Positions 13,196 through 19,379 of a stretch of DNA of 64,000 bases are shown here, piece by piece. Numbering within the stretch: position 1 is the stretch's first letter; the number at the start of each line of letters is the position of its first letter. Made by a program: the position numbers and the translations under genes. Source of the DNA: Opitutales bacterium (lineage in GTDB: Bacteria > Verrucomicrobiota > Verrucomicrobiia > Opitutales > UBA2995); NCBI GenBank assembly GCA_022824405.1, contig JAJDZZ010000005.1, positions 2,160 through 66,159 on the forward strand. The letters are read 5' to 3'. Under the pieces are notes generated by a model. That model had not been told where the DNA came from. It saw only the letters and a program-made list of their open reading frames with translations, and ran no database searches.

Positions 13196-16100
13196 ATGGG
13201 TAGGCCAGTGGAAAATGAGTGCATCCACCTGCGCGGGCTCCGCCAAAACAATCTGAAGGGATTCGACCTCGATTTACCCTTGGGAAAACTGATTGTGGTG
13301 ACCGGCCTGAGCGGGGCCGGGAAATCCTCCCTGGTATTCGAAACCCTGCACGCGGAAGGTCAACGGCGCTACGTGGAAACCTTCAGTCCTTACACCCGGC
13401 AGTTTCTCGAATTGCTCGACCGCCCCAAGCTGGACGCGGTCTCCAATATTCGCCCCTCCATCGCCATCCAACAGACCAACTCGGTCAAAACCTCCCGCTC
13501 CACCGTGGGCACCATGACGGAGTTGACCGACTTTTTCAAAGTCTGGTTCTGCCACGTGGCCCAACTCTTCGATCCCGCCACGGGCGAACGGGTGGAAGAT
13601 GACAATGCCCGCAGCATTTGGAAAAAAACGCAAAGGGCTCACCGAAACCAAACCCTTCTCATCACTTTCCCGGTGGAAAGGCCCAAGTCACTCAGTTGGG
13701 AAGAGATTCTCCAACCCATCAAGGCCCAGGGTTATACCCGCGTCCTGATTCAAGGCAATACCAGGCGGATCGAATCCATCGACCCCTCCCGACTCGATCT
13801 GGGTCAAATTTTCGTTATCCAGGACCGCCTGAAAATTGCATCGTCCAACCGTCACCGGTTTATCGACTCCGTACAAACGGCCTTTCACTACGGACAAGGA
13901 AAGGTCCGGTTATTCGAACCCTCGGGGAAAGAAGCGGGGCGCTATGCCACTGGCCTGCGTTCACCGGTCAGCGGCAAGACTTTCCGGCCGGCCACTCCTC
14001 CCCTGTTTTCCTTCAATTCACCGGTTGGGGCATGCCCGCGATGCCGGGGCTTCGGGCGCATTATCCAGGTGGATTACGGGAAAGCCATTCCCAATGGAAA
14101 ACTCAGCATCGACCAAGGCGCCATCAAGGCATGGCAAGGGGCGGTATACGGGGAAAGTAAAAAAGACCTGCTCGTCTTCTGCAGAAAGGAGAATATCCCC
14201 ACTGACATACCCTTTGAAGACCTGACCCGGGAACAACGTGATTTCGTCATAAACGGAGATCCGAACTACGGGAAAAAGGGCCACAAATGGCCCCGGGCAT
14301 GGTATGGTTTGAAAGGATTCTTCCGGTGGTTGGAAACCAAGGCCTATCGCATGCACGTCCGGGTATTCCTGTCGCGATTCAGGTCCTACACCCAATGCCC
14401 CGCGTGCGGGGGAGCCCGCCTCCAGCCCGAGGCTCTCAATTGGCGTTGGCGCGGCCACACCCTTCCAGGCCTTTACGCTCTTCCCATTCAGGAGTTGCGG
14501 CCTCTGCTTCGGGAAAATTTCAAGAAAACCGACGACCCGCGGGTAGATCTGGCCTATGAATCCATCGTTGCCCGACTGTCTTACCTCGACCGGGTCGGCC
14601 TGGGATATCTGACCCTCGACCGCACCTCCCGAACCCTTTCCGGCGGCGAAGTCGAACGGGTCAACCTCACTTCGTGTCTCGGCGCCTCCCTGGTCGATAC
14701 GCTCTTTGTCCTGGATGAACCTTCCATTGGGCTCCACTCCCGCGACATCGACCGGTTGATTGCCATCCTGCGCCGTCTGACCGACCTTGGCAACACGGTG
14801 GTGGTGGTAGAACACGATGAATCCATTATCCGGGCCGCCGATCACGTTTTGGAAATTGGTCCCAAACCCGGGACCGGGGGCGGTCGACTCGTTTTCCAAG
14901 GCCCCCTCCGGGAACTTCTGCACGATCCGGCATCCATTACCGGACAGTACCTGTCGGACAGGCGCTCCATTCCCCTGCCGGAATCCCGGCGAACCCTTTC
15001 GACATCCCCGGCCGAATCCCCCGCCACCCTTCCGCAGCTCAGCTTCCGGAACGTATCCAAGCATAATATAGACCGCCAGGATTTTCAAATTCCCCTGAAG
15101 TGTCTGGTATGCTTCACCGGGGTCAGCGGTTCGGGTAAATCCACTTTGTTGGATAACGTCATCTATCAAAACCTGCGGCAGCAAGGCGGTGTCATGGTTG
15201 ATGACCCGGCCGCGATAGCCTCTCTCGATTGTCCGGAGAAATTTGCCGGTATCGTCCTGGTGGACCAGGGCCCGGTCAGTAAAACGCCACGCTCCAACCC
15301 CCTGCTCTTCGTCAACGGCTGGAATGATGTTCGTCAATTGTTTGCCAGGACCGATGAGGCCTTAACCCAGGGATTTACCGCGGCCCACTTTTCCTTCAAC
15401 AGCGGAGACGGTCGGTGCGATCATTGTTCCGGGCTCGGCTATGAACGAGTGGAAATGCAATTCTTGTCCGATGTATTCGTTACCTGTCCCATCTGCGACG
15501 GGCAGCGGTTCAAACCGGAAATCCTCCGGATTAAATGGCAGGGACGATCCATCTCGGAAATTCTTAAATTAACCGTAGCGGAGGGATTGGAATTCTTTGC
15601 CGGACAACCGCGCCTGAGAACCCGTCTGGAAGCTCTGGATGCGGTGGGATTGGGTTACCTCAACTTGGGGCAGCCCCTCAACACGCTGTCCGGCGGTGAA
15701 TCGCAACGCCTCAAACTGGTCAAATATTTTTCCAAGGTCGAAGCCACCAGCGGTTCAACGCTTCTGCTTTTGGATGAACCGACCACCGGATTGCACAAGC
15801 ATGACGTGAAGCGGTTGATCGAGGTTCTCCACCAACTGGTGGACCAGGGGCACAGCGTCATGGTGATCGAGCACAACCTGGACGTGATCAAAAGCGCCGA
15901 CTGGATTATCGAACTGGGCCCTGAAGCCGGCGCCCTGGGGGGAAAAGTCATCGCCCAGGGGACCCCTGAACAGGTCATCCGGAAAAACATCCCTTCCCAA
16001 CCTTTTTTGATTCGGGAATTGAATCGAAACGGCAACGGTCGACCCGGAATCAATCCGGAGGGGCTACTCGCTGCGGAAGCGGCGGCCAACTACCACTCCT

Positions 16101-18826
16101 CCCCCAGACCTTCCTCCCCCTCCGTTGAACCCTCCGCCAAGGCACTGCGCATTTTCGGAGCCCGGCAGCACAATTTGAAGAACCTTTCCCTGACCATTCC
16201 CCACAACGAAATTTCCGTGGTTACGGGCGTTTCAGGGTCCGGCAAATCCAGCTTGGCCTTCGATATCGTGTTTGCGGAAGGACAGCGCCGTTTTCTGGAA
16301 TCGACCTCGGCCTATGCCCGGCAGTTCGTCGAAAAGTTGCCGCGGCCGGACGTAGATGACCTGCGGGGAATAGCGCCAACGGTAGCGATCGAACAACGGG
16401 TCACCCGCGGCAGCCGAAAATCAACCGTTGCGACCATCACCGAAGTGGCCCAATACCTGCGGCTGCTTTATGCGCGTTTGGGTGTCCAGCATTCCCCTGT
16501 TTCGGGACTTCCCGTCGTTTCGATGAGCCATTCGGCGCTGTCAAGGCATCTGGGGAAGCTGTTGGAACAACCTAAACTGAAAAGAGCCAGACACCTATAC
16601 TTGGCCGCCCCGCTGGTGCGCGGGCGCAAGGGCCATCATGAACCCATTGCCAAATGGATTGCCAAACAGGGCTTTGACCTCATGCGGGTGGATGGACGGT
16701 TAATCGAAGTAAGCGCATTCAAGAAACTGTCGCGCTACCTGGAGCACGACATCGAGGTAATTTTAAAAGACTTGGGAAAAGAGAGCCCGTCCGGCCCTCG
16801 CCGCTCCCCTCACCCGGAAGGGCCGAGTCCCGAAGCGGATTTACCGCAACTCCTGAAACGGGCCCTTCAACTCGGAAAAGGATCGGCCATGCTGTTGGAT
16901 TCCCGAGCCCGGATAATCACTTGGCTTTCGACCGAACGAGTGGACCCCATTTCCGGGCAAGCCTATCCGGAATTGGATCCCAAGCACTTCTCCTGGAACA
17001 GCTCCAAGGGATGGTGTCCGGAGTGCAATGGAAACGGCCATATCCGCCGCCAGGAAGAAGATCGGTCGGCCCATCGGAAATGGTTTTCGGAACCTTGCCA
17101 AGCCTGCGGAGGGGACCGATTGAACGAATTGTCCCGCAATGTGTATTTGAATTTTGCTAGCGGTCCTTCCCTCACTCTCCCCCAACTGCTCAAACTTCCC
17201 CCGGGGAACCTGCTGGATAAACTAAGCGATCTGAAACTGGACGAAAGGGGAAAGGCAGTGGTGGTGGATATCCTCCCGCAGATTCGGGAAAGGTTAAATT
17301 TCATGGGGCAAGTCGGCCTCGATTATCTAACCATGGATCGTCCTACCGCCACCCTGTCCAGCGGTGAGTCGCAGCGCATACGCTTGGCCGCCCAACTCGG
17401 TTCCAATTTATCGGGCGTTCTCTACGTTCTGGACGAGCCCTCCATCGGCTTGCACGCCCACGATAACTCCCGCCTGATCGAGTCCCTGAAAGACCTCAAA
17501 TCGCGCGGCAACACCTTGCTGGTGGTCGAACATGACGACGAAACCATGGAACAGGCGGACCGTATCGTCGACCTGGGTCCGGGCGCGGGAATCCATGGCG
17601 GAGAGGTTCTGGCCAACGGTTCATTGTCGGAAATCCTCAATACGCCCGAATCGTTAACCGGTCGGTATCTCAAGCGCGGCATCCCCCACCCCATCCGGGG
17701 GCATTACCGCAAATTGCCCAAGCCCTACCGCCCCCGGAGCCGCAAACAACAGGATTGGCTGGTCCTGAAGAAAGCCCGACTGAGAAACCTCAAAGGGGAC
17801 GACCTGATCCTGCCGCTCAATAAACTGATCATGGTCGGCGGTATTTCCGGCGCGGGAAAATCGACCCTGATTCGCGACCTGCTGCGTCCGGTGGTGGACT
17901 GCGCCCGCCGGAGAAACACCGGCAAATTGAATGAATCGGATTTTTCCAAAACGGAGGCATTGCCCAACACCCACGGCGGAAAGCCGTTCCAGCAATTGAT
18001 AAACGGCTCGGTTTTCCGCTCCGTCATCGAAGTCGACCAGAATCCCATCGGCAAGACACCGCGATCGACTCCCGCCACCTATATGGGAGCCATGGATAAC
18101 ATAAGGCAATTTTTTGCCGCTATTCCCGCCGCCAAAGCCCGCGGCTTGGATGCCGGCGCATTTTCCTTCAACACCCCCAAAGGCCGCTGTGAAACCTGCA
18201 AAGGGCTGGGAAAAATAAAACTGGAGATGAATTTCATGCCCAACGCCTATATGACATGTGAGGATTGTGGCGGTTCGCGCTACGGGCCGGAGCTGGACGA
18301 CATCCGTTGGAAAGGCAAAACCATCGCCGATATTTTACAAATGACCTTCGAGGAAGCGGCGGATTTCTTCAAAACTCACAGCCAACTGGGCGACGTGCTC
18401 TCCCTCATGGTGCAAACCGGTCTGGGCTACCTCACTTTGGGTCAAAGCAGCCCCACCCTATCCGGAGGAGAAGCGCAGCGCCTGAAACTGGTCCGGGAAC
18501 TGGCCAAAGGTTTGCCCAGTTTCCGGGATAAAAACCGCGCCATTAATTTTCACAACCTATATATCCTGGAAGAACCCACCATCGGCCTGCACCTGAGCGA
18601 TTGTGAAAGGCTCATTCACCTCCTGCACCAATTAGTGGATCAGGGCCATACCGTAATCGTCATCGAACACCACCTGGACCTTCTGGCGGAAGGCGATTAC
18701 CTGGTGGAAATCGGGCCCAAAGGCGGAGAAAAAGGCGGCTACATCCTCTACCAGGGACCTGTCGAAGGCCTCCTGAAATGCGAAAACAGCCCGACCAGAC
18801 CCTATCTGGAAAAGAAACTCGGTTAG
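13196..18826 (+). CDS. Tandem-duplicated UvrA-like ABC ATPase (two complete UvrA units fused, 1876 aa)
   Basis: Four Walker A sites (GLSGAGKSS, GVSGSGKST, GVSGSGKSS, GISGAGKST) and four ABC signatures (LSGGEVERV, LSGGESQRL, LSSGESQRI, LSGGEAQRL). Each half has the UvrA-type zinc modules (CPRCRGFG...CPACGG; CDHCSGLG...CPICDG; CPECNGNG...CQACGG; CETCKGLG...CEDCGG). The second unit starts near 16138 (LRIFGARQHNLKNLSL). Confidence 0.9.
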   Translation: MGRPVENECIHLRGLRQNNLKGFDLDLPLGKLIVVTGLSGAGKSSLVFETLHAEGQRRYVETFSPYTRQFLELLDRPKLDAVSNIRPSIAIQQTNSVKTSRSTVGTMTELTDFFKVWFCHVAQLFDPATGERVEDDNARSIWKKTQRAHRNQTLLITFPVERPKSLSWEEILQPIKAQGYTRVLIQGNTRRIESIDPSRLDLGQIFVIQDRLKIASSNRHRFIDSVQTAFHYGQGKVRLFEPSGKEAGRYATGLRSPVSGKTFRPATPPLFSFNSPVGACPRCRGFGRIIQVDYGKAIPNGKLSIDQGAIKAWQGAVYGESKKDLLVFCRKENIPTDIPFEDLTREQRDFVINGDPNYGKKGHKWPRAWYGLKGFFRWLETKAYRMHVRVFLSRFRSYTQCPACGGARLQPEALNWRWRGHTLPGLYALPIQELRPLLRENFKKTDDPRVDLAYESIVARLSYLDRVGLGYLTLDRTSRTLSGGEVERVNLTSCLGASLVDTLFVLDEPSIGLHSRDIDRLIAILRRLTDLGNTVVVVEHDESIIRAADHVLEIGPKPGTGGGRLVFQGPLRELLHDPASITGQYLSDRRSIPLPESRRTLSTSPAESPATLPQLSFRNVSKHNIDRQDFQIPLKCLVCFTGVSGSGKSTLLDNVIYQNLRQQGGVMVDDPAAIASLDCPEKFAGIVLVDQGPVSKTPRSNPLLFVNGWNDVRQLFARTDEALTQGFTAAHFSFNSGDGRCDHCSGLGYERVEMQFLSDVFVTCPICDGQRFKPEILRIKWQGRSISEILKLTVAEGLEFFAGQPRLRTRLEALDAVGLGYLNLGQPLNTLSGGESQRLKLVKYFSKVEATSGSTLLLLDEPTTGLHKHDVKRLIEVLHQLVDQGHSVMVIEHNLDVIKSADWIIELGPEAGALGGKVIAQGTPEQVIRKNIPSQPFLIRELNRNGNGRPGINPEGLLAAEAAANYHSSPRPSSPSVEPSAKALRIFGARQHNLKNLSLTIPHNEISVVTGVSGSGKSSLAFDIVFAEGQRRFLESTSAYARQFVEKLPRPDVDDLRGIAPTVAIEQRVTRGSRKSTVATITEVAQYLRLLYARLGVQHSPVSGLPVVSMSHSALSRHLGKLLEQPKLKRARHLYLAAPLVRGRKGHHEPIAKWIAKQGFDLMRVDGRLIEVSAFKKLSRYLEHDIEVILKDLGKESPSGPRRSPHPEGPSPEADLPQLLKRALQLGKGSAMLLDSRARIITWLSTERVDPISGQAYPELDPKHFSWNSSKGWCPECNGNGHIRRQEEDRSAHRKWFSEPCQACGGDRLNELSRNVYLNFASGPSLTLPQLLKLPPGNLLDKLSDLKLDERGKAVVVDILPQIRERLNFMGQVGLDYLTMDRPTATLSSGESQRIRLAAQLGSNLSGVLYVLDEPSIGLHAHDNSRLIESLKDLKSRGNTLLVVEHDDETMEQADRIVDLGPGAGIHGGEVLANGSLSEILNTPESLTGRYLKRGIPHPIRGHYRKLPKPYRPRSRKQQDWLVLKKARLRNLKGDDLILPLNKLIMVGGISGAGKSTLIRDLLRPVVDCARRRNTGKLNESDFSKTEALPNTHGGKPFQQLINGSVFRSVIEVDQNPIGKTPRSTPATYMGAMDNIRQFFAAIPAAKARGLDAGAFSFNTPKGRCETCKGLGKIKLEMNFMPNAYMTCEDCGGSRYGPELDDIRWKGKTIADILQMTFEEAADFFKTHSQLGDVLSLMVQTGLGYLTLGQSSPTLSGGEAQRLKLVRELAKGLPSFRDKNRAINFHNLYILEEPTIGLHLSDCERLIHLLHQLVDQGHTVIVIEHHLDLLAEGDYLVEIGPKGGEKGGYILYQGPVEGLLKCENSPTRPYLEKKLG

Positions 18827-18962: not shown

Positions 18963-19379
18963 ATGATTGTTATTGATACTAATGTGATGGTGTCTGCGCT
19001 TCGGTCGAGCCTTGGCGCGTCACATTTGCTTGTTCAAAGTATAGCGGAAAGGAAATTTGAATACGCCATTTCGGCAGCTCTGATTTTTGAGTATGAGGAC
19101 GCGATTAAAAGAGCAATGGATTGTATTTTATTAACGGACAAGGAATTGGACCTATTTCTGGATTCAATAGTAGCTCTGGGAACCACCTTCTCACCCTTTT
19201 TTCTATGGCGACCCTTCCTTTCTGACCCTAAAGACGATTATGTGCTTGAACTGGCAGCGGTGTCCCGATCCAAGGCAATTATCACTTACAACCAAAAGGA
19301 TTTCAAAGGCATAGAAAAATTTGGAATTCAGACTTTGCCTCCAAAAGTTTATTTGCAAAAGAAAGGATTAATTCAATGA
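18963..19379 (+). CDS. PIN-domain toxin (PIN_3 / TIGR00305-like)
   Basis: N-terminus MIVIDTNVMVSAL, with acidic residues in DPKDDYVLELA and ITYNQKDF. It is 138 aa, and its stop overlaps the next start in an ATGA. Confidence 0.8.
   Translation: MIVIDTNVMVSALRSSLGASHLLVQSIAERKFEYAISAALIFEYEDAIKRAMDCILLTDKELDLFLDSIVALGTTFSPFFLWRPFLSDPKDDYVLELAAVSRSKAIITYNQKDFKGIEKFGIQTLPPKVYLQKKGLIQ

Follow-up and report, generated by a model that had tools for sequence, protein, structure and literature searches.

A tandem double UvrA from an Opitutales bacterium whose two units have each lost a different working part

Canonical UvrA is a homodimer in which any mutation hits both protomers, and it is debated whether the damage sensor is UvrA2-UvrB1 or UvrA2-UvrB2, and what role the four ATPase sites and the two insertion domains each play. 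Proteins with two UvrA units in one chain, here called double UvrAs, are already annotated and widespread, and have been reported for other phyla, among them the Chlamydiae (PRK00635) and the Planctomycetes, where a fused UvrA has been published and seen in the proteome (Mahajan et al. 2021, PMC8567305). Here we describe a double UvrA encoded on contig JAJDZZ010000005.1 of the Opitutales bacterium assembly GCA_022824405.1 (Verrucomicrobiota), in a stretch of 64,000 nucleotides (positions 2,160 to 66,159 of the forward strand) which we call the window, and whose own numbering is used throughout. The new point is not the double arrangement as such, but that each half of the family to which this protein belongs has lost a different working part.

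The gene is a single reading frame that stays open over 1876 codons plus stop, without interruption. The NCBIfam UvrA equivalogs match the whole chain twice over (NF001503, 1791.6 bits; TIGR00630, 1767.1 bits), and the NF001503 cut-off of 1147 bits is passed by the whole chain only as the sum of its units, which singly score below it (911.7 for the N unit, 628.7+255.6 for the C unit). Hundreds of full-length homologues of 1830-2000 amino acids (aa), 59-90% identical to the double UvrA, are held in the protein database under the name ‘excinuclease ABC subunit UvrA’; they come from Opitutus terrae, Rubellicoccus, Ruficoccus and many metagenome-assembled genomes of Opitutaceae and Opitutales. In a survey of 121 genomes of the phylum, the uninterrupted double frame occurred in ~19 of the 22 sampled from its own order and in ~17 of the 19 sampled from its class (~36/41), the only genomes there without it being reduced ones (1.7-1.8 Mb and 0.9 Mb). 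Of ~80 genomes outside the class, 3 had the double. Given the hundreds of full-length homologues and the same open frame in most genomes of the order and class, the double UvrA gene is real and conserved, and not an artefact of assembly or frameshift. An earlier, sequence-only reading of this DNA had described a covalent tandem of two complete UvrA units with four ATP-binding cassette (ABC) ATPase modules and a boundary near 16138. Motifs and profile matches agree with the tandem, the linker between the units lies where the boundary was placed, and the frameshift or stop that was thought capable of splitting the frame is absent from hundreds of independent assemblies; completeness, by contrast, holds for the N unit and not for the C unit, which lacks the insertion domain of ~110 aa.

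Over its whole length the N unit can be aligned with G. stearothermophilus UvrA (2r6f, chain positions 24-942, E 2e-215). Its UvrB contact residues are R182, D210, R211, R221 (equivalent to E. coli R216), D224, S225 and Q227 (equivalent to E222), and its insertion domain measures 117 aa, with a partial match to Pfam UvrA_DNA-bind. R216 and E222 belong to the UvrB interaction surface as defined by experiment, and deletion of the UvrB-binding domain abolishes repair (PMC3025350). The C unit aligns to class I UvrA 9gxk in two pieces, 28-313 and 425-960, and the contact positions of its UvrB-binding-like domain are replaced (L1162, K1191, D1192, D1215, Q1218, L1219 and K1221), partly with reversal of charge. 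Pfam UvrA_inter scores 48.5 and 49 bits in the two units, and the alignment of the C-unit domain was anchored by the A-L-x-L-G-x-G helix that follows it together with the partial Pfam match. As for DNA, most contact residues survive in the C unit, whereas in the N unit several of the basic residues with which signature domain II contacts DNA are gone.

This lopsided pattern of loss is consistent across the 65 members of the family. The residues of the UvrB-contact set R176/D205/R206/R216 (native numbering), which do not vary among canonical UvrB-binding domains, are retained by 89-97% of N units and by only 2-15% of C units. All 65 N units have the insertion domain, but only 11 of the 65 C units do. 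For the signature-II basic residues K718/R720/R726, the share retained is 46/45/0% in N units as against 91/78/65% in C units. To judge from these alignments, the accessory parts are split, with UvrB contacts and insertion domain in the N unit and signature-II DNA contacts in the C unit. Because in chlamydial double UvrAs neither half has given up the UvrB contacts or the insertion domain, the lopsidedness is on the same evidence specific to this double-UvrA family.

An AlphaFold2 model covering the C unit alone had a mean predicted local distance difference test score (pLDDT) of 83.1 and a predicted template-modelling (pTM) score of 0.76, with a pLDDT of 84-91 in the UvrB-binding-like region; the low-confidence parts were a Pro/Ser loop (aa 1197-1213), the loop that replaces the insertion domain, the tip of the hairpin of the third zinc module and a short N-terminal loop. 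The best Foldseek matches of this fold are with class I UvrA (3uwx, E 1e-81; 3zqj, TM 0.81), both UvrA2 (6e-60) and Ecm16 (6e-49) coming behind.

We put the probability at roughly 55% that this protein is a single-chain, asymmetric UvrA pseudo-heterodimer with four ATPase sites, which would load one UvrB and work in parallel to the canonical UvrA. The two units would fold back on each other through a flexible linker of ~52 aa, rebuilding the head-to-head UvrA dimer; by our own estimate (~3.5 Å per residue) the extended linker would reach ~150 Å or more, which should span a UvrA dimer. The N unit would give the only insertion domain, with its DNA-clamping and damage-discriminating role, as well as the only intact UvrB-docking surface, and the C unit would give most of the signature-II DNA-contact residues. 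A composite UvrB site may be formed by the N-unit UvrB-binding domain and the C-unit signature II, the reciprocal pair being degraded on both sides. Such a complex would scan DNA and, to one side of the lesion, load a single UvrB for each molecule, thereby feeding ordinary UvrB/UvrC excision. Intramolecular dimerisation, a 1:1 stoichiometry with UvrB and a role in excision repair are what we infer from this arrangement, and that fused UvrAs may be able to do standard repair is suggested by the chlamydial double, since it appears to be the sole UvrA of its genome. More tentatively, and with more doubt than belief on our part, the protein might be an obligate, naturally asymmetric single-chain UvrA, with a single damage-discriminating insertion domain and a single composite UvrB site, that loads exactly one UvrB with fixed polarity to the lesion, as a specialised excision sub-pathway beside the symmetric canonical dimer; if so, it could serve, for example, particular lesions or handoff from stalled polymerases.

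Several observations weigh against the asymmetric pseudo-heterodimer. In its alignment to the references, the UvrB-binding-like domain of the C unit reaches an identity of only ~29%; this N unit has Gln where E. coli has E222, a residue that just 63% of the family retain; and the signature-II counts do not tell UvrB-contacting from DNA-contacting residues. The genome encodes one uvrB and mfd, but uvrC was not found in this assembly (3.39 Mb in 92 contigs, 96% complete); since a uvrC of ~500 aa is present in 5/6 congeners, and 13/16 sampled genomes have one over the family cut-off, a gap in the assembly is the likely cause. No repair genes neighbour the double uvrA at 15 loci, and no site resembling the LexA-type (SOS) box TGTTC-N4-GAACA lies near the start, which is a weak negative.

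The features of the gene are collected in Table 1.

Table 1. Features of the double uvrA gene, in window coordinates
Feature	Coordinates	Strand	Basis or remark
Tandem double UvrA, 1876 aa	13196..18826	+	Open frame, NCBIfam profiles, homologues, genome survey
N unit, aa 1-932: full class-I-type UvrA with ATPase sites 1 and 2, UvrB-binding and insertion domains, Zn2 and Zn3	13196..15991	+	
N-unit lost Zn module 1, first half LFDPATGE	13565..13588	+	Alignment; second half RSPVSGKT at 13958-13981
N-unit UvrB-binding domain (Pfam UvrA_inter, aa 140-238)	13613..13909	+	Profile match and residue alignment
N-unit Zn module 2 (C280/C283...C401/C404) around full-size insertion domain	14033..14407	+	Pfam UvrA_DNA-bind at aa 293-357
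N-unit Zn module 3 (C741/C744...C764/C767)	15416..15496	+	Adjoining signature-II basic residues replaced: L723, Q725, H731, Q782
Inter-unit linker, aa 933-984, ~52 aa	15992..16147	+	Low complexity; length ~35-90 aa among orthologues
C unit, aa 985-1876: ATPase sites 3 and 4, no insertion domain	16148..18823	+	Alignment, AlphaFold2 model
C-unit UvrB-binding-like domain (Pfam UvrA_inter, aa 1128-1194)	16577..16777	+	Profile positions 13-79 of 109 matched
Hypervariable Pro/Ser-rich loop, aa 1197-1217, inside C-unit UvrB-binding-like domain	16784..16846	+	pLDDT <50
C-unit Zn module 2 (C1274/C1277...C1301/C1304)	17015..17107	+	23-aa loop replaces ~110-aa insertion domain
C-unit Zn module 3 (C1665/C1668...C1688/C1691)	18188..18268	+	Motif search, alignment
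Site-4 Walker B LYILEEPT, Asp->Glu	18557..18580	+	20/21 sampled verrucomicrobial orthologues; 25/65 of family

Considering other ways of reading the same features, the protein could be a DNA-scanning ATPase that works independently of UvrB in the manner of class II, clearing intercalators or other DNA-bound ligands or filling some other non-excision role, with an N-unit UvrB-binding domain that is vestigial or binds another partner such as Mfd. We regard this as unlikely. In its favour, a canonical uvrA already covers standard repair, reduced genomes have lost the double paralogue yet kept the canonical copy, one unit is without both the insertion domain and the UvrB contacts, and class II proteins are examples of UvrA folds at work outside the excision pathway (PMC9328131, PMC8837605). 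The N-unit contacts, however, are kept in ~90-97% of the 65 proteins, which is hard to explain without a partner of UvrB or Mfd type, and class II is defined by having no UvrB-binding domain, a fold that both units retain here. Matches of both sequence and fold favour class I over UvrA2 and Ecm16, and the gene has neither a biosynthetic cluster nor a conserved neighbour, so that nothing at the locus suggests the drug or intercalator resistance that the sequence-only reading proposed. Nor is the protein of the UvrA2/DrrC-like class with which that reading compared it.

It seems to us improbable that the protein is simply a covalent UvrA dimer with the function of the canonical one and labour not divided between its units, in which the differences between the halves reflect neutral decay of redundant parts. 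Such a dimer would fit with the finding that short substrates can be incised in vitro without the insertion domain (PMC3025350), with the 11 family C units that still have this domain, with the retention of UvrB contacts in both chlamydial halves, and with the existence of UvrA2-UvrB1 complexes of the canonical protein (PDB 9ga3). Against it, the losses are reciprocal and consistent over 65 diverged proteins and not random, the C-unit contacts are charge-swapped and not merely variable, and a canonical UvrA is retained in every sampled genome with a double, which argues against simple redundancy. There is finally a set of explanations, to which we give hardly any weight, in which the gene is a merged-gene artefact, a decaying pseudogene or an anti-phage component such as MADS. 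The PADLOC models mad3 and mad8 do match the double UvrA, with 441 and 158 bits, but on mad3 the canonical UvrA of the same genome scores 285.7 bits and outdoes the halves (219 and 230); the match therefore reflects generic UvrA homology, and as no defence genes lie nearby a MADS component was ruled out. Decay or artefact is likewise at odds with catalytic motifs that are all intact and with the recurrence of the frame in independent assemblies.

As the sequence-only reading had it, there are four Walker A sites (aa 37-45, 642-650, 1011-1019 and 1549-1557) and four signatures of LSGGE type (LSGGE 481, LSGGE 831, LSSGE 1387 and LSGGE 1755), the third being LSSGE; four Walker B motifs and four H-loop His residues are present as well. 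None of the 65 family members lacks the catalytic Lys, Asp/Glu, Glu or His or the signature Ser at any of the four sites, and by these motifs all four ATPase sites are intact. The Asp->Glu change in the Walker B of site 4 is the signature of a verrucomicrobial subclade and is never seen in canonical UvrAs; judging by the residue, it could slow hydrolysis at that site.

Cysteines of zinc modules 2 and 3 (Zn2 and Zn3) are retained in both units (Table 1). The first module (Zn1) is lost in both, as had been noticed from FKVWFCHVAQLFDPATGE at aa 114-131 and LLYARLGVQHSPVSGLPV at aa 1089-1106, and all four ligand positions of each half are non-Cys (FDPATG/RSPVSG in the N unit, HSPVSG/VDPISG in the C unit), so that the double UvrA lacks one of the three zinc modules taken as a criterion of class I. 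Within the double-UvrA family Zn1 is kept in other orders and lost in both halves only in the order of the window. The sequence-only reading took the loss as a hint of a degenerate UvrB region, but canonical single UvrAs of Akkermansia-type and related genomes (7 genomes) have all four Zn1 ligands changed to DPxTG / NPxTG turns, and all chlamydial UvrA halves are without Zn1, while this genome's own canonical UvrA retains C-D-C-C there. Because canonical UvrAs of the same class lose these cysteines too, the loss is uninformative on UvrB interaction and was discarded as a functional marker; for the same reason, seen in related genera, Zn1 is a weak criterion of class I, and to judge from the sequences it seems dispensable in this verrucomicrobial class.

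The linker between the units is unconserved in sequence apart from a semi-conserved LLAAE...Y motif, here LLAAEAAANYH (aa 959-969, window 16070-16102). In the form L-x-A-A-E-x(3-4)-Y the motif occurs in most Opitutales orthologues and is lacking in the Akkermansia type; from its sequence it might serve in docking or in packing. The Pro/Ser-rich loop of the C unit varies from 5 to 50 aa among orthologues; an origin as a repeat-derived insert was ruled out, there being no second copy in the window and the loop being hypervariable in orthologues. No strong palindromes were found in this loop (16784-16846) or in the inter-unit linker.

The N and C halves are 36% identical to each other. In a maximum-likelihood tree of 21 N units, 21 C units, the canonical UvrAs of their genomes and 2r6f, the N, C and canonical sequences fell into three separate groups (SH-like approximate likelihood ratio test, SH-aLRT, 100/100/97), whose internal topologies mirror each other. 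The phylogeny of the halves that the sequence-only reading had called for thus makes the duplication ancient, and the mirrored topologies and three groups point to one ancient fusion, inherited vertically. Between the same pairs of genomes the identities of N, C and canonical units are alike (for example, 59/64/63%, 48/50/49% and 46/47/40%), and because their divergence equals that of canonical UvrA, both halves are, as far as sequence identity tells, under constraint as strong as the housekeeping gene.

A search with the C unit against 1.84 billion cluster representatives gave best 150 matches that were almost all double-length (1550-2343 aa), and double-length UvrAs make up at least 140 clusters at 50% identity, so that the earlier view of duplicated UvrAs as noted in a few genomes was an underestimate. 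The spacing of the Walker A motifs, together with a tree of 276 units, divides the tandem UvrAs into at least three families. That of the window has 65 proteins, with matching clades for its N units (support 99) and C units (100), and includes Thermodesulforhabdus norvegica WP_093394543.1 and ‘bacterium HR30’. A second, ‘short-short’ family, of ~1570-1680 aa and 25 clusters, consists of two class-II-like units without a UvrB-binding domain and forms separate clades, and the third is a ‘full-full’ group. The tandem UvrAs of 2334-2343 aa carry extra C-terminal parts. Akkermansia is among the class-level groups with the double, and one Akkermansia cluster at 90% identity holds 3277 member sequences. 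In a literature search, no paper was found on a verrucomicrobial double UvrA or on a ‘class III’ UvrA.

A separate canonical uvrA, whose presence elsewhere in the genome had been put forward as a point to check, lies on contig 65 (975 aa, 1171.7 bits against the NF001503 cut-off of 1147), and the fused gene is therefore a paralogue; a canonical UvrA of ~950-990 aa was found in every sampled genome that carries the double. Around the double uvrA lie genes for a sulfatase, a GT4 glycosyltransferase, a repeat membrane protein, a PIN toxin cassette and enolase. The PIN-domain (PIN_3) frame at 18963-19379 is directly downstream of it, a position that is not conserved in relatives. Across 15 genomes, with 6 kb taken on each side, only the double uvrA itself was common and no neighbour was conserved; with no biosynthetic cluster or repair operon around it, this is a stand-alone gene.

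Were the double UvrA a natural single chain with complementary units, each ATPase site, insertion domain and UvrB surface could be mutated singly, and its value would lie in offering a natural single-chain system for the study of UvrA asymmetry and UvrA:UvrB stoichiometry. As the family occurs in Akkermansia and Opitutus, both of which are culturable, the idea should be testable. If the halves are merely redundant, what is left is an annotated, lineage-specific gene fusion of modest interest.

Compared with the canonical class I UvrAs (E. coli; 2R6F/3UWX; T. maritima 3PIH; M. tuberculosis 3ZQJ; C. thermocellum 9GX*), each unit of the double has the same fold and domain order, with two ABC modules, intact motifs, Zn2 and Zn3. 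It differs from them in joining two units in one chain instead of forming a homodimer, in having lost the Zn1 ligands in both, in a C unit without the insertion domain and the UvrB-contact residues, and in an N unit without several signature-II basic residues. The class II UvrAs (D. radiodurans UvrA2 2VF7, DrrC, Ecm16 7SH1) are also paralogues that stand beside a canonical UvrA, but they are without the UvrB-binding domain whose fold both units of the window's double keep. The spacing between the Zn1 sites is ~131 aa in both units as against ~7 in tandem class-II-like proteins, and sequence matches are stronger to class I (720/667 bits) than to UvrA2 (531/498) or Ecm16 (444/403). One cluster traced to the Planctomycetota has a short first unit and a full second unit, and falls outside the window's family in the tree.

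A parallel in layout is the chlamydial double UvrA (NF001885 / PRK00635, 1809 positions), which is likewise tandem and of similar total length. Chlamydiae genomes, picked by a 16S signature pattern, carried double frames of 1786-1971 aa in 7 of the 8 sampled. A double from a Chlamydiaceae metagenome-assembled genome scores 2687 bits on NF001885, and the double UvrA described here 1121.9 bits, well short of the cut-off of 3054. In a Chlamydiaceae double of 1808 aa the Walker A and Walker B motifs of the second unit are degenerate, and one Parachlamydiales genome has a canonical UvrA of 943 aa together with a stop-riddled double. In a tree of 91 units the chlamydial N units group with canonical UvrAs (SH-aLRT 95) and the chlamydial C units form a clade of their own, neither joining the N clade (100) or the C clade (100) of the verrucomicrobial family. 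The hidden Markov model score and the separate clades rule out a shared origin, such as a fusion common to the whole Planctomycetes–Verrucomicrobia–Chlamydiae group, and indicate that the verrucomicrobial and chlamydial fusions are independent. They differ, too, in the company they keep: where the chlamydial double is apparently the only UvrA, the verrucomicrobial double coexists with a canonical copy.

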